DNA of 64,000 nt. Source: a virus. Of the stretch, positions 17,935-27,638 are shown in pieces. The first letter of the stretch is position 1; each line of letters opens with the position of its first letter. The position numbers were made by a program, and so were the translations under genes. The notes beneath the pieces are model-generated. The model saw only the letters and a list, made by a program, of their open reading frames with translations. It did not search any database and was not told the origin of the DNA. The stretch is from the IMG/VR virus record IMGVR_UViG_3300033149_004566, positions 32,001-96,000 of that record; one strand, written 5' to 3'.

Positions 17935-18320
17935 TTGAAAAGGGCATGTGCCCTATTAGAGCCCCACATAGAGCTAAAAAAATACGTGCCATGATTTCCG
18001 AGTTTGGATTTCGGATAGGCGACCCCGAGCTCAGATCTCCTTTAACTATGGACTTGCTTTTGAAAAATAGAGAAAAAATTCAAAAACAAATTGCCGAAGA
18101 AACGTCAGAAACTGCTCTGGAAATGCTGAATAAATCTCTAAATAAATTGAATGACAGGATAAAGTATCGCGAGGAAATGTTGCGGACGGTTTTATATCCG
18201 AAGGGTAAAGTTCCTTTCTCGATACAAAAAAAGTTTCCGATGTCGTTCTGGTCTACTAAAGGTGGGTTGAGAAATGTTCAAACGGTTGGTGTGAGAAGGC
18301 GTGGACGTAAGAAGCATTAG
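17931..18320 (+). CDS. Hypothetical protein
   Basis: Coupled ORF. Confidence 0.6.
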   Translation: MIEKGMCPIRAPHRAKKIRAMISEFGFRIGDPELRSPLTMDLLLKNREKIQKQIAEETSETALEMLNKSLNKLNDRIKYREEMLRTVLYPKGKVPFSIQKKFPMSFWSTKGGLRNVQTVGVRRRGRKKH

Positions 18321-19989
18321 TCCGTTTTTGGATGATTTTCTAAAAAAATACGATTTCAAGGGCATGGATGATAACAGAATCATGAAGATGCTCTTGTCGT
18401 CTTTAGATTGGTCTACGTTTGCGGAAACGTGGTTTAGAAACCCAATAGATCCCACGCTACCATTAAAATTGGAAAAGTTTCAGCGCCGCATCATAAATTA
18501 TTTTCAATACGGCAAGTGCAGTAACATAATTGTCAAGTGCCCCCGTCAATTTGGTAAAACCACTCTCATATCGATATTGTGTAATTTAATTGCCATTTTT
18601 GATCCGGGTGCTAAGATAGGCCTATTTTCTACATCACACGACCAGTCCAAGGAGATATTGGGTAAGGTCAGGAAATTCATGAGAACGTCGGCATTTTCTT
18701 ACTTACTTGACGATAAAAGCGTTCAAACGCAAACCGAAATAAATTATAAGGATCCTCGCGGCCTTGGGCATGGGTGCAGGATTAAAGCGTATTCTAGTTC
18801 TGGCAAAACCGTTCGTGGCCCCGATTTGACTTACACGTTTATGGATGAAATGGGCCAAATGGACGACGACTTCGTAAATCAGGTTGTCCGTCCGATGGGA
18901 AGGGCTGTTGGAAAGAAAGAACTCGGGGCAAGCACTCCTTTCGGTACGAGGGGCGAGTTTTGGAACTCACATGAGAAGCCGTATCATTGGGAATGTCAAT
19001 CGTGTCATGCTAAGGGCTTTGATGAACCACACCCTTACACGTGCCCGAAATGCGGCGGTTCAGTTCAGACTCTTGGCCAATATAAAGTGTTTGATGTTTC
19101 ACCTCTTGACGTGTCTTGGATCACGCCCGAAAAACTTGCGGCAGAAGCTGCACGTCTCGGCCCGATTGCAGCGCAACAGGAGCTGTTTGGAGAGTTTATC
19201 CCGGCCGGAGATACTTATTTTAGACACGACTGGATAGTGAATGCCAGGGTTTTCACGCCAGAGCAAAATTCAAGATTTTCATCCATGGGAAAACCGTATT
19301 ATACCTATTATCTTTCCACGGATTATGGTAAACAACGTGATAGAGGCGTGATCATGATAGGCCATTTTCAGGATGACGTGTTGTATCTGGATTGGGTCGA
19401 ATCACATCTAAAAATGCCGTATCCAAGATTTCAAGATAGAATGAAAACTCTTTGTGATAGATATAATGTTTCAGAGGCCATTTTGGATGGGAACGGTGTC
19501 GGAATTGCTCTCATAGATTATCTCCGCGAGGACGTGCAGGTGCCGATTTTTACCAACAAGCCCGATTTGGGCCCCGGATATAAGTACGGTAACAAGGAGA
19601 AATTTCAGATGTTGGAAGCTCTTGCCAACATGTTGATACGGAAGAGAGTTCGTTGGCCGTATCATGAAAATCACTCTGACCCGAGGCAGGAAATGTATGA
19701 GTTATACATGATGGAGCAGGAGCTCATCAATTATTCTTATGAATGGGGAAAATCGTCAATCATAATGGGAACTCAGAGCGAGCACGACGATAGGGTCATG
19801 GCTTTGGCACAGCTCGTTGGGGCAACAATGATGACACATTTTGACGATGTCATGCCGTATGGGGCTTCTGACGTGTCAAGAGATGATCGCGGATGGCCGG
19901 TTTTTGACGAGGTCGGGGAAGAATTTGACGTGATGTGGGTTGATAACACGACGGATCCGGAGTACGAAATATATGACACCATCTTCTGA
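18301..19989 (+). CDS. terL: Terminase large subunit
   Basis: Walker A PRQFGKTT, Walker B TFMDE, motif III ASTP, nuclease STDYGK..D, DGNGVG, HDDRVMA. Confidence 0.97.
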   Translation: MDVRSISPFLDDFLKKYDFKGMDDNRIMKMLLSSLDWSTFAETWFRNPIDPTLPLKLEKFQRRIINYFQYGKCSNIIVKCPRQFGKTTLISILCNLIAIFDPGAKIGLFSTSHDQSKEILGKVRKFMRTSAFSYLLDDKSVQTQTEINYKDPRGLGHGCRIKAYSSSGKTVRGPDLTYTFMDEMGQMDDDFVNQVVRPMGRAVGKKELGASTPFGTRGEFWNSHEKPYHWECQSCHAKGFDEPHPYTCPKCGGSVQTLGQYKVFDVSPLDVSWITPEKLAAEAARLGPIAAQQELFGEFIPAGDTYFRHDWIVNARVFTPEQNSRFSSMGKPYYTYYLSTDYGKQRDRGVIMIGHFQDDVLYLDWVESHLKMPYPRFQDRMKTLCDRYNVSEAILDGNGVGIALIDYLREDVQVPIFTNKPDLGPGYKYGNKEKFQMLEALANMLIRKRVRWPYHENHSDPRQEMYELYMMEQELINYSYEWGKSSIIMGTQSEHDDRVMALAQLVGATMMTHFDDVMPYGASDVSRDDRGWPVFDEVGEEFDVMWVDNTTDPEYEIYDTIF

Positions 19990-20746
19990 CTTGCGGCCGA
20001 AAATATCCCTTTTTACGTTATTGCCTTACGTGATTCAGGAGCATAAAGCCAAGCGTGCCGGCTTACACTACGACTTTCGCGTGAAGCGCGGCGAAAATGA
20101 TTGGGAATCCTGGGCGATAAGAAAGGGATTTCCGAAAAAGCCCGGGATAAAACATCTGGCCGCACCGACGCCGAGTCATGATGAATATTGGGCAAAATTT
20201 AGCGGCGTCATACCCAGGGGTTACGGCTCCGGTAGACAGAAAGTCGTTGAAAGCGGAAAAATAGACGTGATAAGGGAGCGAAAGAAAAAAAATAAATCGA
20301 TTACTTTCAAAAAGGGAAAAGATTATTACACCATGATAAAGTTAAAAAAGGGAAAAAATTGGTTGATTTTTAAAAACGAGTCGGTGAAGTGGCGCAGGAC
20401 GAAGAGCGGGGGCAAATTTCCGAAGATCGATGAGATGGAAAAGGGAATGCCAAAAATGACGAACAAGCAATATAAGGAGTTTTACAAGCGGATGTTGGAC
20501 TTGGGCTTGTTGAATCAATATAAAACGATTGGTAAGCCCATAAAACAGGATCATGGGGGCATACCCATAATAGAAGATGGAATGTCGGCTCTTTCGGCTT
20601 ATCCTACAGCTATAGGGGAAGTGTGTCCGAAATGTGGACACCCGGAAATAAAAACGTGGCAGCGTCAGACTAGATCTGCTGACGAACCGATGACGCAGTT
20701 TTTCAGATGTGTCAGGTGCGGATATACCTGGAGGGAATACGATTGA
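19973..20746 (+). CDS. LigD 3'-phosphoesterase domain fused to TFS/TFIIS C-terminal zinc ribbon
   Basis: YVIQEH.A.RAGLHYDFR...SWA..KG.P..PG.K.LA...H...F.GVIP.GYG.G; C-terminal CPKCG...QTRSADEPMT.FFRC..CGYTWRE. Confidence 0.92.
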   Translation: MTPSSDLRPKISLFTLLPYVIQEHKAKRAGLHYDFRVKRGENDWESWAIRKGFPKKPGIKHLAAPTPSHDEYWAKFSGVIPRGYGSGRQKVVESGKIDVIRERKKKNKSITFKKGKDYYTMIKLKKGKNWLIFKNESVKWRRTKSGGKFPKIDEMEKGMPKMTNKQYKEFYKRMLDLGLLNQYKTIGKPIKQDHGGIPIIEDGMSALSAYPTAIGEVCPKCGHPEIKTWQRQTRSADEPMTQFFRCVRCGYTWREYD

Positions 20747-21054
20747 GCGTGACGTATAACGGTTACACGGCAATACAGCCGAGAGTCATGTTGAAAGAAT
20801 ATATTAAGAGGACAAATAATATTCCAGAAAGACGCGATGATAAATATGATAGAAATCCGAAAGGAAAACATGCTAAATTAAAAACAAAAGAACCGAAGAG
20901 ACCCAAATATGATAAGAGTAATAGTAAGCCCGGACTTACCGATGATCAGATTCGTGGAAACCCGAAGGATTGGAAAAATTATACGATCGTGTTAAAAAAT
21001 GTCAAAAAGATGCCGAAAATGGTTTTTGATCAATATGAGAGGTGTAGGGTTTAA
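20743..21054 (+). CDS. Hypothetical basic protein
   Basis: Coupled to the portal start (TAATG). Confidence 0.55.
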   Translation: MSVTYNGYTAIQPRVMLKEYIKRTNNIPERRDDKYDRNPKGKHAKLKTKEPKRPKYDKSNSKPGLTDDQIRGNPKDWKNYTIVLKNVKKMPKMVFDQYERCRV

Positions 21055-22865
21055 TGGACGACGAATATGACGCATGGATGGACGTGTACAAGCCGGAAAG
21101 AGTTGAAATTGAGAATTATGAAGATATAAATGATCTTTCTAATAGCATCGTGTCCATGGAGGTTGGGTACGAAGTTGCCATAAATATAGAAGATACGGCA
21201 CAGGAAGACGTCAATTGGTATTATCAAACGCAGGACGAAGAAATACGCCGCCTGAAAAGGCATCTCATTAAAAAAACACCGCAAAATTTGAGTTGGGCGT
21301 TTTGGGAAGATGATACTGCACAAGCATTTGCCATGGTTATAACTTATACTATAATAGGTGATGGCATAAGAGTGCGACCGAGAAAGGACGGCTTGAAGAA
21401 AAAGAAAAAAGAAAAATTAGAAAGAATTATAGATGATTTCAATAACAATATCAACGAACGCGGAGAAGACGTGTATGATATAATTCATCAAGCCGTGATA
21501 GGTAACGTGATACATGGAAAACAATTATTTAAAAAGGTGTTTAGAAAAGATCCGTACACTGGAAAGGAATATTTGTCTCTTTATGAAATAGACATGAGAA
21601 CCATATCTGAACTTGTAAATCCCATTCATGGATACAGGAAGTTCGTGCAGGATCATTACATTAATGAAGAATTGCGCGACATTGATAGAAAAACATTCAT
21701 GGAAACGTACGATCCTTTTATAAATCCGGAAGATAAAAAAGTGATTAATATGGGAATTGCGAGGCACAGGGTTCCGGTTTATGATAATGAAGTTCTTTTC
21801 TTTAAATTTTATAAAAAGCCCCCAATGAGATCTATTGTTGATCTAATAGTTTATAAAAAATGGATTTATTATTTCATGAAACAGGCCGCCAAAGTTAGGG
21901 GCGTTCCGCCTCCAGTAATTACCGTTGGCAATCAGCAGAGCCATCCGACTTCACGTGATTATCCAAAGTATCTAAAAAGGGCCGCTCAAATTGGTGGAAA
22001 ATTAAAAAATTGGGATGCCCTTTCGATGCCTTGGAATTGGGCAGTACAGTGGATGGAAGGTGGAAGGCCGTTTGATTTCACGCCACATCTTCAATTTATC
22101 AATAGGAGAATTGTTTTCTCATTGCTCGGTTCGATATCTCTCTTGGAAGGCGCATCTGGAGAGCTTCATGGCCATGTCATAGAAACGGTTTGGCTTCGTG
22201 TAATTTCAGCATTTAGAAGAAAAATAGCTAGGGTGTTAGAAAAGTGCTACAATGAAGTACTCAAGATGAATGGCATCAACGAGGAAGTTGTCATTGAGTG
22301 GACGCCTTTACGTGAGCCCATTAGTAAAGCTGAAATTGCCGCGATATTATCATCGTTATTCCAATTGAATGCTCTGAAGGATGTTAATGAGTTACGTGAA
22401 TTATTTTCAAAGAATGGCATAATAGATTTGTCTCCGATGGATGAAGATGAAGAAGAAAAAGGCTACGCTGGTACCGGAGTTGAAGAATTGATAACGTCGG
22501 TTATGCCGGTACAAATGGAAAATAAAATATTAAAACAAAAACTCGAAGAATTTAGTAAAACTGGCGATTTCAATAGAAAACAAGTTCACGTGAAAAATTT
22601 AAAAAGAAGCCTGTCGATGTTGAACAATTCTTTGGGAACTGAACAGGCAAGACCCGAAAAAGCCGTGAAAAAACCGTCGATAAAAACTCCCATGAATCCA
22701 AAACCGGATTCACTTGGTCATTCATCTTTGAAGATACCATCTTTGAAGGTAAAAAAGGAAGGACAGCAATACATGGAAGCATCATCCGACGATGAAAGCA
22801 CGTGTTATGAGGAAGACGGCGTGAAAAAAGGATATTGCCCGGAGGAAATAAAAAATGGAAAATGA
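21054..22865 (+). CDS. Portal protein
   Basis: Position after TerL; 603 aa; GDGIRV, HG...KK, K..GVP pattern. Confidence 0.85.
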   Translation: MDDEYDAWMDVYKPERVEIENYEDINDLSNSIVSMEVGYEVAINIEDTAQEDVNWYYQTQDEEIRRLKRHLIKKTPQNLSWAFWEDDTAQAFAMVITYTIIGDGIRVRPRKDGLKKKKKEKLERIIDDFNNNINERGEDVYDIIHQAVIGNVIHGKQLFKKVFRKDPYTGKEYLSLYEIDMRTISELVNPIHGYRKFVQDHYINEELRDIDRKTFMETYDPFINPEDKKVINMGIARHRVPVYDNEVLFFKFYKKPPMRSIVDLIVYKKWIYYFMKQAAKVRGVPPPVITVGNQQSHPTSRDYPKYLKRAAQIGGKLKNWDALSMPWNWAVQWMEGGRPFDFTPHLQFINRRIVFSLLGSISLLEGASGELHGHVIETVWLRVISAFRRKIARVLEKCYNEVLKMNGINEEVVIEWTPLREPISKAEIAAILSSLFQLNALKDVNELRELFSKNGIIDLSPMDEDEEEKGYAGTGVEELITSVMPVQMENKILKQKLEEFSKTGDFNRKQVHVKNLKRSLSMLNNSLGTEQARPEKAVKKPSIKTPMNPKPDSLGHSSLKIPSLKVKKEGQQYMEASSDDESTCYEEDGVKKGYCPEEIKNGK

Positions 22866-22992
22866 TGAGGTTTATGCAACCGTTGTAAGATACGCGTGTA
22901 AGACACCGCATAAAAAAATACGATCCAAGGGAAAGGGACGCGGAAAAGCCAGGGGCAAGGGTAAAGGCCCGATTGGTATTCCTATAAAGTAG
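22855..22992 (+). CDS. 45-aa Gly/Lys-rich microprotein (not in ORF track)
   Basis: ...CKTPHKKIRSKGKGRGKARGKGKGPIGIPIK; GGAGG SD. Confidence 0.65.
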   Translation: MENDEVYATVVRYACKTPHKKIRSKGKGRGKARGKGKGPIGIPIK

Positions 22993-23002
22993 AGGTGTTA
23001 AA

Positions 23003-23263
23003 ATGGATTCATCCATATGGTTGATGGAAGTTGTTCGTCTCGAATCTGAAAAATGGAAAGACGAGGATACTGAGCCATCTGAAGGAATGTCTGAAGAGGA
23101 AAAATCTGAAGTTGTAAAAAAAGCGAAAAAAGGTAAAGATATCGGTAAAAAGGGAAAAAAATTTAAAGAAGTGGCTGAAAAAGCGGCAGAAAAGTACGGA
23201 TCTAAAGAAGCCGGTGAAAAAGTTGCTGCTGCCGCAATGTGGAAAAATTTGAAAGGTAAATGA
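23003..23263 (+). CDS. Small Lys/Ala/Glu-rich putative head-associated protein
   Basis: KKAKKGKDIGKKGK.F..VA..A...YGSKEAGEKVAAAAMWK; GAGGTG SD. Confidence 0.7.
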   Translation: MDSSIWLMEVVRLESEKWKDEDTEPSEGMSEEEKSEVVKKAKKGKDIGKKGKKFKEVAEKAAEKYGSKEAGEKVAAAAMWKNLKGK

Positions 23264-23266
23264 TCA

Positions 23267-25525
23267 ATGATACCCGTGTCCGTATTGATGGAACCGCCCA
23301 AGGTGGTAAAAGATCCTTTAAAATCATCGTCATTGATAAAGTCATTCGTGATGATGAATAAAATGAAATTTAAGGGTCTGGTTCCAAAAATAATGGACGC
23401 TATCAGGCAATCCAGGCGCGTTGTTCAGATGGAAACCGGTGCACGATATCTCAAGAGATACATCGATAACATGTTATATAATAGCATTGTCGATCCGCAT
23501 TTATTGGATAGGATGAAGTCATTCGTGGAAAACACGTATATTCAACACTCTAGAATGTTGCAAGAAGAATTGTATAAATTGAAGATGGTTCCCACGACAA
23601 TGGCCGTCATGACTCCTACTGATGAGGACAGGGTAGAGGATAGAAAGGATACTATAGAAAAAATGGCAAGCCTGGAAGCCGAACGCTTGAGTGCGAGGAT
23701 TCATGACATAATAGATAGGGCTTATCATAATGCCGAACCGTTATACAAAATAAAAAAAGAACTACAAAAATCCATAAAAGTTAGCAAGAAAGAATCCGCT
23801 AGAATTGCCAGAACCGAGCTCATAAAAACCATGAACTTGGCCAGGTTGGAACGTATGACTTCATCGGGGATCGAATATTATCAGTGGGTTTCGGCTCCTT
23901 CGTTTGATGAGAGATTGTGTCCTTTATGTGGCGAATTAAATGGAAAAGTAATAAAGTTGGGCAGGTCGTTTTCGGATTTAGTGCGAAACGAATCATCCAA
24001 GAAAATAATGGGAACTAGACAGATCTATTATCCTCCGGCACATCCGAATTGCAGGTGCACTATAAGGCCATCTTATGCTCCGGTAATTACCAGGCCGTTA
24101 AAAGAACCGAAATTTATAAAGAAAATATTCGATAAGTTTCCTGGCTTGAGGCCCAAAACCTTGATAACACAAAAGATCGGCCCGACTTCGATAGATATCA
24201 TACAGGCGGAAGAATTAGAGGACTGGCACGAATTGCACGATTTATATTTAAATGAATCGAAAAGATGGGGTGGCGATCTTCGTAAGCGATTGATATATCA
24301 GGCGATGGAAGCAAAAAATAGGGCAATGAAGGAAGACATAGAATTATTCGAGCGCGATAACTTGGAGGAAATGGAAAAGCCGAAATGGACGCATTATCCT
24401 TTAACAAAAGATGAAATTTATTATCATTATGCGCGAAATTGGGATAAATTGTATCCGGAATTGAAGGGCCGAAGAGTGGCGATCCGTAACCGCAGGGGCG
24501 TCATTTTACGTAATTGGGAGCCCGGTGGAAAGCCCATAGAAATAAAAAATAAAAATGATTTAAAAAAAGTAGTCTATAATAAAAATGCGGTTGAATTGAT
24601 TCCGGAGTTGAGCACCAAAAGGATGAAACCATCAAATACAAGAAGGTTTCTCGTGGATTTAGATTCAAATAGACCGATAGACGAGACGGTTGTCAAAAAA
24701 ACAGTTGAAAAAATGAAAACGCTGCCGGTCAATAATGTTCAGGTTATATTTTCCGGGAAGCGTGGATATCACGTTAGAGGTGATACAAAAAAGAGTTACA
24801 CGTGGAAAAAAGCGAGAAAAATGCTTCGTGAGGCGATGAAGCCTCTATCAGAACAATACAATGATATAATTTTTGATTTATCACCCATGAAAAGACGTGG
24901 AGTTAGTGTATCTCCTTATAGTTTGAGATATTTGCCGACAGAAAGACAGGGCGTTGCACATCACGTGCAATTTGAAGAGTGGTATGAAAAGGGTGCGTTA
25001 GGCACGCGGGACATAATTCCGGAAAAATTAAAATTGCCTAGCGGAAGAAATGCTTTCTTCAGGAAAACGTTTCTTGGCATCCAAAAACGAAAGTTGTATA
25101 CCGAACAGGAATATAAATTGCAGGCGGCTTTACCGATCATATCGGCATTGAAACACGATCTCGATTTATCCGATTCGGTACAAAAAGAAGCGAAAAGGAT
25201 ATTTAAAAAGGCTTATAGTAGCGGGATAACACAGGGTAGAAAAACATCGTCCAATGCCGCGGTATCTGTTTACAATGCCATGAGATCGTTGGGAATGAGC
25301 AGGCCGATAAAAGATTTTCTTCCGCATGCAAATGTAAAGACCGGATCTTTTGTCAGGGCGGTTAAAAAATTTCAGGACGCTTTAAACTTGCCAAAATTTA
25401 AAGTCGGAAAGCGCGCCGACGTGGAAGAGGCAAGAAAGTATTATAAAAGCATGAAACGTACCGGTATAAGCAAGCGTAAAGTTGCAAGAATGTTTGGCGT
25501 GTCTCCGTCGAGTATAGGTGATTAG
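23267..25525 (+). CDS. Polyvalent head morphogenesis protein: MuF (SPP1 gp7) + LigD-type primase-polymerase + TFB cyclin repeat + HTH
   Basis: RIARTE, YQW...DERLCPLC, PPAHPNCRC; YY..NW..L.P.L.GR, VDLD, FSGKRGYHV; L.LS..V..EA..IF.KA......GR......A..VY.A.R. Confidence 0.9.
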   Translation: MIPVSVLMEPPKVVKDPLKSSSLIKSFVMMNKMKFKGLVPKIMDAIRQSRRVVQMETGARYLKRYIDNMLYNSIVDPHLLDRMKSFVENTYIQHSRMLQEELYKLKMVPTTMAVMTPTDEDRVEDRKDTIEKMASLEAERLSARIHDIIDRAYHNAEPLYKIKKELQKSIKVSKKESARIARTELIKTMNLARLERMTSSGIEYYQWVSAPSFDERLCPLCGELNGKVIKLGRSFSDLVRNESSKKIMGTRQIYYPPAHPNCRCTIRPSYAPVITRPLKEPKFIKKIFDKFPGLRPKTLITQKIGPTSIDIIQAEELEDWHELHDLYLNESKRWGGDLRKRLIYQAMEAKNRAMKEDIELFERDNLEEMEKPKWTHYPLTKDEIYYHYARNWDKLYPELKGRRVAIRNRRGVILRNWEPGGKPIEIKNKNDLKKVVYNKNAVELIPELSTKRMKPSNTRRFLVDLDSNRPIDETVVKKTVEKMKTLPVNNVQVIFSGKRGYHVRGDTKKSYTWKKARKMLREAMKPLSEQYNDIIFDLSPMKRRGVSVSPYSLRYLPTERQGVAHHVQFEEWYEKGALGTRDIIPEKLKLPSGRNAFFRKTFLGIQKRKLYTEQEYKLQAALPIISALKHDLDLSDSVQKEAKRIFKKAYSSGITQGRKTSSNAAVSVYNAMRSLGMSRPIKDFLPHANVKTGSFVRAVKKFQDALNLPKFKVGKRADVEEARKYYKSMKRTGISKRKVARMFGVSPSSIGD

Positions 25526-26093
25526 ATTGCCGATAACAGTAAAAATGAGCTCTTTAAAATTAAAAAGGTTGATTCCACAGGCAATATATCATATAAAAAG
25601 CGAAGCCGCGCAAATATTGATGTTTAGCATAATAGAAGTTTTCATGCAACAGGGACTTCCGGATGAACAATGGAAGCAGTTGTCGGCGATAACTGTCGAG
25701 AAAAAACACTCCAGATCTATTTTGATAGATAAGGGATTTTTGATGAACTCCATTACGGTTGGGCCAATCGATGTTGATAAACCCGTGGAAGTTGGAATAT
25801 TTGAAGGGCCCGCTCTCAGGTATGCTTGGATACATGAGTTTGGTGGCACGATTCCGGTTACTGACAGCATTAGAAAATTTTTTATAGCAAAGACCGCAGA
25901 AGAACGAAGACAACGTCCAGGATTGCCTGAAGATTCTTACACGTGGCATCCTTTGAGAAATGATACTAACGTGATATCAATTCCGGCAAGACCCTTTATG
26001 AGGTGGGGCGCCATCATTGCACGTCCTAAAATTAGTAAAATGGCTGAAAGAGTTTGGTATACGATGATTAATCAGGGATTGATAATTAAATGA
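25518..26093 (+). CDS. Virion morphogenesis protein (Mu gpG/P2 S-like)
   Basis: W..LS..T, LID.G.L.NSI, YAWIHEFGG, IPARPFM. Confidence 0.9.
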   Translation: MIRLPITVKMSSLKLKRLIPQAIYHIKSEAAQILMFSIIEVFMQQGLPDEQWKQLSAITVEKKHSRSILIDKGFLMNSITVGPIDVDKPVEVGIFEGPALRYAWIHEFGGTIPVTDSIRKFFIAKTAEERRQRPGLPEDSYTWHPLRNDTNVISIPARPFMRWGAIIARPKISKMAERVWYTMINQGLIIK

Positions 26094-26926
26094 AAACATT
26101 ACCCATTTATACGTTGCAAGACACTCTAAATCCTGAAATTTGGATAGGAGATGGTAAAAATGCAAGATTGCGAAAAAAAATTAAAAATGTCATCATGGAT
26201 TCCGTTCGTAAATCTTTGGATAAATACGGTGGTAAGCCAAAGCGTATCATCATCGTTGGCTCCTCTGTTGCTTATAGATGGCGAAAAGACGGTGATATTG
26301 ACGTACACGTTGAGGGAAAATTTCCCATCAATGACTATGAGGTGGACGAATATAAAATACCCGGATCAAAATTGACTATAGAGGTGGTATTAACCAATCA
26401 AAAATTTCCCAGTACAACGCGCGCTGAGGGCGTTTATAACGTGGTGATGGATAAATGGATTAAAACTCCAGAACGATTTCCGGGCAAGGTTTATTGGGAT
26501 CCATTAATAGAGGAAGCGTCTTCATGGGCTAGAAAGGTGGATCTCGATATGGGCGAATTAAAACGCGATCTTCTCGAATATATTTTATATAAAGAGAATG
26601 GCGGCGACGAGTCTGCCCTTGCAAGAAAAGCCGACGAAATAAAATCCGATTTGAATAGCATTGTTGATACTTGGGATGCTCTAAAAAATGAAAGAACGAA
26701 GGCACTTTCCGGCGATTCCGACGACACGAGGTTTTTTAAAAATCCGAGCAAGTCATCCATGTTGCAACCGGAAAATTTGATATTTAAAATACTGCAGAGA
26801 TTTCAGTACAACGATTTGATGAAGCGCGTGAAACAACTCGTCAGGGATCTTCAGGACGAGACGAATTTTGATGTTATTGAGAGGATAATAACGAGATTTT
26901 TGAAGAAGGAAAGGTGGATTAAATGA
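26090..26926 (+). CDS. Pol-beta superfamily nucleotidyltransferase
   Basis: LNPEIW...IIIVGSS..Y.W...GDIDVHV. Confidence 0.85.
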   Translation: MKTLPIYTLQDTLNPEIWIGDGKNARLRKKIKNVIMDSVRKSLDKYGGKPKRIIIVGSSVAYRWRKDGDIDVHVEGKFPINDYEVDEYKIPGSKLTIEVVLTNQKFPSTTRAEGVYNVVMDKWIKTPERFPGKVYWDPLIEEASSWARKVDLDMGELKRDLLEYILYKENGGDESALARKADEIKSDLNSIVDTWDALKNERTKALSGDSDDTRFFKNPSKSSMLQPENLIFKILQRFQYNDLMKRVKQLVRDLQDETNFDVIERIITRFLKKERWIK

Positions 26927-27402
26927 ATAGGAAAGCCAAACTCATGCTCAAAGGTATGAACGAAAGAAATGCAAAGATTTCCAATGAATTAATGTCAATA
27001 GCCATACCCGGAGAACACGGCACGGGAATACCGGTTCTTCATCCGTATCAAAGATTGAGACATTGGTATTTCAAGAAAAAAATGGAACAGGCCAAAAAAT
27101 TGGCAAAAAAATATAAAGAAGGAACTCCTGAATACAGGGCATACATGGATGCATTTAATGTTGCAGTTGGTAAAACTTTAGCGGCTTATAGAAAGAGCCG
27201 CGATCTGACTTTCCCGATGATGGCCGAGTTTGAAGAATTAAAAGAAAAATTGGAAAGATTTGCGTGTCCTAAAAGTGGTGAACGCAGCGGTTATAACGTT
27301 CATGCTGTTTGTACTGAAAGTGTATGCGGCGACGCAGAAGACGTGGAAAAATGTAGAGAATCTGATAAATATAAGAGATGTACTGAAAAGGTAGGAAAAT
27401 GA
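26923..27402 (+). CDS. Hypothetical protein with Cys-rich C-terminus
   Basis: Coupled ORF. Confidence 0.6.
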   Translation: MNRKAKLMLKGMNERNAKISNELMSIAIPGEHGTGIPVLHPYQRLRHWYFKKKMEQAKKLAKKYKEGTPEYRAYMDAFNVAVGKTLAAYRKSRDLTFPMMAEFEELKEKLERFACPKSGERSGYNVHAVCTESVCGDAEDVEKCRESDKYKRCTEKVGK

Positions 27403-27638
27403 TACGTAAAGCTCGCTCTAAAAGACCGTATAAGCCGTTAGATCTATCAAAACGCTTACAGATAATGTTGATGGCAATGGAAGATTATTCAATATCTTCC
27501 ATATCTAAAGAGTTACGTGTTGCTCGTAATACCGTTAAAAAGTATATTGAGCCAAAAGAGAAGGATAGAACTATGACCGACATTGTAGAAGTGGTCAAGG
27601 TCTTGACAAAAAACAAGAAAAAAACTCCATTAGAATGA
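27399..27638 (+). CDS. Helix-turn-helix protein
   Basis: YSISSISKELRVARNTVKKY. Confidence 0.85.
   Translation: MIRKARSKRPYKPLDLSKRLQIMLMAMEDYSISSISKELRVARNTVKKYIEPKEKDRTMTDIVEVVKVLTKNKKKTPLE

Follow-up and report, generated by a model that had tools for sequence, protein, structure and literature searches.

A MuF-type head protein gene of an Asgard archaeal virus encodes a LigD-type polymerase and a TFB core

An uncultured tailed virus that infects archaea of the Asgard type encodes, within its head operon, a single protein that joins a MuF minor-head-protein module to a LigD-type archaeo-eukaryotic primase-polymerase (AEP) and to the cyclin-fold core of the basal transcription factor TFB. 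The gene occupies positions 23267-25525 (+ strand) of a stretch of 64,000 nucleotides, hereafter the window, which corresponds to bases 32001-96000 of the 112,862-bp IMG/VR virus record IMGVR_UViG_3300033149_004566. The record has a 114-bp terminal repeat, and DNA of the virus is present in two marine-sediment samples from one study. By analogy with bacteriophage MuF proteins, there is in our judgement about an even chance that the fusion protein is a MuF-anchored polyvalent cargo protein of an archaeal virus, packaged in the virion and ejected with the DNA.

Architecture and distribution of the fusion protein

The gene is one open reading frame (ORF) of 752 amino acids with zero internal stops, in agreement with a preliminary description of the window that had placed MuF, AEP and TFB segments in a single frame. 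Its N-terminal module (residues 1 to ~345, nt 23267-24301, +) is identified as a MuF minor head protein by Pfam, NCBIfam, PHROG and the ESM Atlas. Pfam Phage_Mu_F (PF04233) matches residues 145-266 (nt 23699-24064) with an E value of 1.2e-14 and 55.5 bits against a cut-off of 29.6, the NCBIfam model of the SPP1 gp7 domain (TIGR01641) matches with an E value of 3.2e-15 and 56.4 bits against a cut-off of 39.65, and at least ten PHROG head-morphogenesis families also match, so that the MuF domain anticipated at ~23267-24070 is borne out. A Cys knuckle (C218, C221, C262 and C264) is invariant in the three homologues that share the full architecture. In a structure search of the ESM Atlas, residues ~5-345 (5-344/351) align to minor capsid proteins of the MuF type with toxins at their C-termini (Ntox50, MPTase, Gln-amidase or ADP-ribosyltransferase), and the whole ~345 N-terminal residues therefore constitute the anchor, with the cargo beginning thereafter. 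The module thus combines family-model scores above cut-off with a head-operon position adjacent to the portal gene, and this homology and gene position suggest that the fusion protein is probably present in the virion and ejected from it.

Proteins with the MuF-polymerase-TFB architecture form three clusters, including this one, among 1.84 billion representative proteins. The other two are P0003 (828 aa, 36-38% identical to the window protein in differing alignments) and P0005 (795 aa, 31-34% identical). The P0003 gene is divided between two short JGI contigs, L083 and L084, and its locus is syntenic with the window: the C-terminal part of the portal is 63% identical (L083), the neck protein 49% (L084) and the nucleotidyltransferase-like gene 53%, synteny having been checked for P0003 only, the one of the two other clusters whose contigs were fetched. 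Identity among the three homologues is 43-46% in the polymerase, 37-40% in the MuF core and 25-26% in the TFB repeat, and 55 of the 186 polymerase residues are invariant; by its segment identity the polymerase is the most constrained part of the protein. The architecture was found in no further protein, whether among the 1.84 billion representatives, IMG/VR, the GTDB genomes or the GenBank phages, the last of which match the MuF part only. Sequence patterns from the MuF part recovered only plain MuF genes from IMG/VR, portal-based scans of IMG/VR found no kin, and patterns from the polymerase and TFB parts found nothing in IMG/VR or GTDB genomes and, in JGI metagenomes, nothing but P0003 in two halves.

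This organisation recalls the polyvalent MuF-effector proteins, including SPP1 gp7 and Mu gpF, with which it shares an N-terminal MuF domain, encoded next to the portal gene and followed in the same polypeptide by unrelated enzymatic or DNA-binding cargo (PMC5512222). As polyvalent proteins are defined in that work, the fusion protein contains at least two unrelated domains of an effector or early-function kind, comes from a virus with portal and terminase, and is encoded in a context of virion genes. That MuF proteins are packaged and ejected carriers of effectors, as the preliminary description stated, is an established architecture (PMC5512222) that the Atlas neighbours also display. The present protein differs from those described previously in its cargo, a LigD-type polymerase with an archaeal TFB core, and in its archaeal host; in an earlier survey, conjugative elements of Firmicutes and Fusobacteria were the only reported carriers of Primpol cargo, and polyvalent proteins were scarce in archaea (Iyer et al. 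2017, PMC5512222). It differs further in that no processing peptidase domain was found in it with Pfam, NCBIfam or PHROGs, and no sign of cleavage was seen, so that the earlier term polyprotein is not supported.

A LigD-type polymerase within a head protein

The second module (residues ~371-556, nt 24377-24934, +) was identified by profile comparison with PDB structures and by its motifs as an AEP of the LigD or non-homologous end joining (NHEJ) type, consistent with the AEP/LigD polymerase expected at ~24385-24940 on the basis of the motifs DLD and SGKRGYH. As a single sequence the segment matches the NHEJ polymerase structure 5DMU with an E value of no better than 0.39. An exhaustive HMMER search of the representative proteins found ~35 relatives, and a 15-sequence profile of relatives retrieved 5DMU at E = 1.5e-14, followed by 2FAO, 2IRU, 5OP0 and 6SA0, with the matches to 5DMU, 2FAO and 2IRU spanning E values of 1.5e-14 to 1.8e-8. 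Of 25 scanned relatives outside the fusion, 24 contain LigD_Prim-Pol at E <= 0.01; a DNA ligase domain was also found in two, a 3'-phosphoesterase (PE) domain in four, and both in two. One relative of the polymerase domain, P0011, has LigD_Prim-Pol fused to DUF5661.

Motif I (DLD, residues 464-466, nt 24656-24664, +), motif II (SGKRGYH, residues 496-502, nt 24752-24772, +) and motif III (the region of D537, then S552 and R554, +) line up with motifs I (DxD), II (sGxRGxH) and III (Asp) of LigD polymerases. D464/D466, S496, G497-R499-G500-H502, D537, S552 and R554 are invariant across the three full-architecture homologues, and with its catalytic motifs intact the polymerase is apparently active. 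It shares its AEP sub-family, by profile, and the three catalytic motifs with the Methanocella paludicola Pol (5DMU) and the LigD Pols (2FAO, 2IRU), and has in addition the 'TK-[DE]-[IL]-x-x-YY'-like N-terminal segment of NHEJ Pols. The Cys knuckle of replicative primases is absent from the segment. Of the two lysines that we take to form the 5'-phosphate pocket, one is not conserved in the three homologues. Unlike the NHEJ Pols, the enzyme is neither fused to nor encoded beside Ku or a DNA ligase, and instead resides in a head protein where it is fused to a TFB core.

A TFB core without the parts that recruit RNA polymerase

The polymerase and the TFB core are connected by a linker (residues ~557-606, nt 24935-25084, +) that is poorly conserved and probably flexible, with 3 of 50 residues invariant and a predicted local distance difference test score (pLDDT) of 22-32 in the full-length AlphaFold model. 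That model, made from 3 sequences, is poor overall (pLDDT 53.8) and was used only for the confidence pattern of the linker and TFB regions. The linker contains zero Cys, and hhalign found no match between it and the N-terminal region of TFB.

The first cyclin repeat of TFB/TFIIB follows (residues ~607-708, nt 25085-25390, +), as shown by Pfam, PDB, hhalign and structural modelling. The Pfam TFIIB repeat (PF00382) matches residues 617-703 with an E value of 3e-12, and the Pyrococcus TFB core (1D3U/1AIS) is matched at E = 9e-10. Alignment by hhalign to 19 archaeal TFBs gives a probability of 99.6% and an E value of 7.7e-25 over template columns 104-298 of 320, that is, over the two-repeat core only, and these results uphold the cyclin fold predicted at ~25110-25390. 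An AlphaFold model of residues 592-752 from a 41-row alignment has a pLDDT of 91.7, and its top Foldseek matches are all TFIIB or TFB, comprising chains of pre-initiation complexes plus 1D3U and 1AIS. Near-invariant positions of the family are retained in repeat 1, namely the G-R loop (G657, R658) and the Y...R pair (Y669, R673), and it is from these core residues that the segment is predicted to bind the TATA-box-binding protein (TBP) and promoter DNA.

The remaining residues, 709-752 with the stop codon (nt 25391-25525, +), are a remnant of cyclin repeat 2, as indicated by a gap in the hhalign alignment and by the helices of the model. The first two helices of the repeat are deleted and the last three are retained (126-141, 145-152 and 156-159 of the 161-residue segment), including the terminal helix-turn-helix. 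The preliminary description had correctly noticed a helix-turn-helix at the C-terminus, but had listed it beside the TFB fold; an independent domain is ruled out, as hhalign aligns it to the C-terminal helices of repeat 2. This helix-turn-helix is, in TFB, the reader of the TFB-recognition element (BRE), and the recognition helix of the window protein is short and without the TFB consensus. Repeat 2 is fuller in P0003 and P0005, the latter having two Pfam TFIIB stretches.

Nothing in the fusion protein matches, by hhalign, the Zn ribbon, B-reader or B-linker of TFB, the parts responsible for RNA polymerase recruitment and start-site selection, and as such RNA polymerase could not be recruited by the known mechanism. 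With two defining parts absent and one truncated, the fusion protein is not a TFB. By that mechanism its predicted core could tether or compete and would not serve as a working initiation factor. The earlier proposal of a transcription hijack is therefore upheld as regards the presence of a DNA- and TBP-binding core, but with the polymerase-recruiting parts gone, hijack would mean tethering or competition rather than initiation. The fusion protein shares with archaeal TFB/TFIIB and with viral TFBs the cyclin-fold core, the G-R loop, the Y and R positions and the terminal helix-turn-helix, and differs from them in the missing N-terminal parts, in the truncation of repeat 2, in the polymerase and head protein to which it is fused, and in its location in a structural operon. 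Stand-alone TFB homologues are known from archaeal viruses, including some rudiviruses, PBV300 and the Asgard virus JinchiV1 (PMC13700489). In the literature searched, viral TFBs are reported only as separate genes, and no such fusion is described.

Retention of the DNA- and TBP-binding core alone, with its near-invariant family residues, might suggest that the protein acts as a decoy in competition with host TFB, occupying TBP-promoter complexes and so blocking initiation, mainly late in infection, shutting off host or early genes while the polymerase serves an unrelated repair function. There is precedent in RIP of Acidianus two-tailed virus (ATV), a global transcription inhibitor carried in archaeal virions (PMC5569661), and a gene adjacent in the head operon, in which a LigD PE is fused to the ribbon of transcription factor TFS (PE-TFS), is likewise aimed at the RNA polymerase machinery. 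We nevertheless consider such a role unlikely. The genome search found no other TFB and no TBP encoded by the virus, and a general block would thus also strike viral promoters; the TFB part is, moreover, the least conserved segment of the protein. In addition, MuF proteins such as SPP1 gp7 are present in few copies per virion, which cannot titrate the TBP of a cell on entry. A decoy role confined to late infection, when the late operon is expressed, is possible.

The head operon and its other genes

The head operon runs in the order TerL, PE-TFS, a 115-aa ORF, a Mu-like portal, an 86-aa ORF, the MuF-polymerase-TFB gene and a Neck1-like gene. The MuF-polymerase-TFB gene sits within this + strand run of abutting and overlapping late head genes, and is read as translationally coupled to the portal and neck genes that flank it. 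The terminase large subunit TerL (18301-19989, +) was identified by Pfam TerL_ATPase and PHROG 2 (E = 4.6e-30). The probable Mu-like portal of 603 aa (21054-22865, +) has an ESM Atlas feature score of 0.94 and a TM-score of ~0.5-0.56 to Portal_Mu clusters, and found no sequence match in Pfam, PHROG or PDB. A 45-aa ORF (22855-22992, +) overlaps the portal stop codon and has a Lys/Gly/Arg-rich, KGKGRGKARGKGKG-like tail; it may encode a small basic protein, either internal or DNA-binding, or be a frameshift extension of the portal. The 86-aa ORF directly upstream of the fusion gene (23003-23263) is highly charged and was assigned to no family. Downstream, the Neck1 or tail-completion-like gene (25518-26093, +; PHROG 26, E = 9.6e-16, and Pfam Phage_tail_S) overlaps the stop of the fusion gene by 8 nt.

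The next gene (26090-26926, +) is a possible Pol-beta-type nucleotidyltransferase on a weak, below cut-off match to NTP_transf_2 (E = 0.0025), and would thereby be a possible third nucleic-acid enzyme of the head operon. Its 53%-identical relative in the P0003 locus (L084:1403-2878) independently matches NTP_transf_2 at E = 0.003, also below cut-off, and the product of that relative has a ~210-aa N-terminal extension. Further along the structural operon, a gene at 27399-27638 (+) encodes a 79-aa homeodomain-like helix-turn-helix protein (HTH_23, E = 4.7e-5).

The PE-TFS gene (19940-20746, +) fuses a LigD 3'-phosphoesterase (Pfam LigD_N, E = 8e-16; NCBIfam LigD_PE) to the C-terminal Zn ribbon of TFS/TFIIS (Pfam Zn_ribbon_TFIIS, E = 1.2e-17; NCBIfam TFS_arch). 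These Pfam and NCBIfam assignments confirm that two LigD modules of the window are each fused to a fragment of a transcription factor, as had been proposed. The database version of the protein begins at Met12 (nt 19973), and at the sensitivity used the fusion is known only from this virus. The canonical acidic hairpin RSADEP and 4 of 4 ribbon cysteines are kept, and from these residues PE-TFS could enter the secondary channel of RNA polymerase as an active cleavage factor bearing a 3'-phosphoesterase.

Another explanation is that the fusion protein acts in assembly only, its MuF module serving in head morphogenesis and its C-terminal domains working in the producing cell or in the capsid without being delivered; while the DNA is packaged or afterwards, they could, for instance, hold its end at the portal or trim it. 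SPP1 gp7 binds both DNA and the portal, the fusion gene is part of a late operon, and other genes of the head module, namely PE-TFS and the nucleotidyltransferase-like ORF, resemble nucleic-acid enzymes. We find this improbable, as a fold that binds TBP and promoters has no obvious role in a capsid and as enzymatic cargo at the C-terminus of a MuF protein is generally taken to be a delivered effector, in published examples (PMC5512222) and among the Atlas neighbours.

Outside the head operon, the genome encodes PolB, an anaerobic ribonucleotide reductase, glycosyltransferases, an ERCC4/XPF nuclease and an Rnl1-type RNA ligase. The RNA ligase (PF09511, E = 1.7e-17) lies outside the window at genome positions 111652-112731 (-) (L087:16152-17231), and is the sole ligase-superfamily gene found in the virus. 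The absence of ligase and Ku from the window, as first described, extends to the whole genome for DNA ligase and Ku, but the repair set is not strictly ligase-less: the Rnl1-type RNA ligase could close the nicks with ribonucleotide tails that remain after a LigD-type polymerase and PE have acted.

A 349-aa ORF beside PolB (genome 9526-10575, -, L085; likewise outside the window) has weak matches to PriS (E = 0.005) and PriL (E = 1.4e-4), and probably encodes a fused replicative primase that is distinct from the polymerase of the head protein. Given this ORF, the idea that the head-protein polymerase is the only primase of the virus was rejected, weak as the evidence is, and replicative priming is probably not the task of that polymerase. 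A screen of intergenic 8-mers yielded A/T-rich words only, with no virus-specific promoter or origin motif.

These results bear on a further explanation, in which the fusion protein is a promoter-directed primase whose polymerase replaces the RNA polymerase-recruiting N-terminus of TFB, and which, placed by the TFB core and host TBP at TATA/BRE-like sites of the incoming genome, would make short primers of RNA or DNA, or short transcripts, without host RNA polymerase and so start the first round of replication. Enzymes of the AEP superfamily are able to prime de novo. The polymerase lies directly N-terminal to the TFB core, on a flexible linker of ~50 residues, in the place that normally belongs to the Zn ribbon, B-reader and B-linker, and is under the strongest constraint of all segments; PrimPol domains are, moreover, known as transferred cargo (PMC5512222). 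Against this stand the separate PriS/PriL-like candidate next to PolB, the lack of a virus-specific promoter or origin motif among intergenic k-mers, and the truncation of the second cyclin repeat in the window protein. To our knowledge, LigD-type polymerases are distributive gap-fillers that are not known as origin primases. We regard a promoter-directed primase as quite unlikely.

Relationship to described viruses

The source virus is probably the Helarchaeota virus 'Nidhogg' (Rambo et al., bioRxiv 10.1101/2021.07.29.454249), whose genomes were reported as closed circles from two samples. Features described for Nidhogg that are also present here include a circular assembly with direct terminal repeat, PolB, ERCC4, RNA ligase, a 'ligD with TFS-II-like zinc finger', a PrimPol and a minor head protein; the preprint also mentions E1-like genes, and its 'homeodomain protein' may correspond to the 79-aa helix-turn-helix protein described above. 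PrimPol, minor head protein and ligD-TFS are listed there separately, under replication, and the terms 'TFIIB', 'TFB' and 'MuF' have 0 occurrences. The preprint identifies PE-TFS as an ATP-dependent DNA ligase, whereas no ligase domain was found in it here. The genome has probably been published already, without a description of the MuF-polymerase-TFB architecture.

Model and implications

The explanation that we favour is that of a packaged and ejected cargo protein. The MuF module would place a few copies of the fusion protein inside the capsid at the portal, from where they would leave with the DNA at infection, a step that we infer from the precedents of SPP1 gp7 and the MuF-effector proteins. 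Once in the host, the polymerase may act on the linear genome as it enters, adding or filling in a small number of (ribo)nucleotides wherever there are ends, gaps or nicks. The TFB core, on its ~50-aa flexible linker, would bind DNA, probably at TATA/BRE-like sites together with host TBP, and could thereby hold the polymerase on viral DNA or occupy promoter complexes. Trimming and sealing could be contributed by PE-TFS, with which the fusion protein may cooperate, or by a ligase, either the Rnl1-type RNA ligase of the virus or one of the host. The analysis establishes the domain identities, the intact motifs, their conservation and the position in the head operon, and everything in the model past these is inferred. 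A small number of MuF copies per virion favours such a catalytic or site-bound role at entry over stoichiometric shut-off of the host.

Several observations weigh against this explanation. On the window protein alone, the LigD_Prim-Pol model (PF21686) is sub-threshold, with 20.1 bits against a cut-off of 27.4 (E = 5e-4); P0003 and P0005 score 27.1 and 28.3 bits, respectively. Sequence-specific reading of the BRE by the window protein is doubtful, judging from its truncated second cyclin repeat and short recognition helix. Neither Ku (PF02735) nor DNA ligase (PF01068) was found across the whole 112,862-bp genome, and the virus therefore does not encode a complete NHEJ pathway. Finally, the terminase is of the ATPase type that matches T4-like models in Pfam. 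Such a T4-like terminase would fit headful packaging, in which case circularisation by recombination would make end joining unnecessary.

In concept, a transcription protein that is carried in the virion and acts before viral gene expression is known from the virion RNA polymerase (vRNAP) of coliphage N4 and from ATV RIP/ORF145, the latter being a virion-borne transcription regulator in an archaeal virus (PMC5569661). However, the N4 enzyme is an RNA polymerase in its own right and complete, and the site bound by RIP is the DNA channel of RNA polymerase, whereas the present protein combines the core of an initiation factor with a repair-type polymerase, and its delivery is proposed from homology. 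A bolder version of the idea, which we think very unlikely, is that the protein is a virion-delivered, promoter-targeted primase-polymerase, in which the TFB core and host TBP dock on TATA/BRE-like DNA and the tethered AEP takes over the part of RNA polymerase. If true, this would be a self-contained initiation device, capable of starting nucleic-acid synthesis on the incoming genome before host polymerase is recruited, and, in an Asgard-archaeal virus, a naturally occurring chimera between the machinery of basal transcription and that of priming.

The first minutes of host takeover by archaeal tailed viruses are almost unknown, and no archaeal counterpart of the polyvalent effectors injected by phages has been characterised so far. 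Here, a head anchor is joined to two easily assayed modules, an NHEJ-type polymerase and a TFB core, in a virus whose host lineage is of special interest because its machineries for transcription and repair are similar to the eukaryotic ones. If packaged, the protein would bring the first basal transcription factor core into a virion, within the literature searched, and would add to the hints, among them PE-TFS of this virus, that LigD-type end-processing enzymes are present in the head modules of archaeal tailed viruses. Its TFB-core-only design would constitute a natural dominant-negative or tethering variant with which to dissect archaeal transcription initiation.

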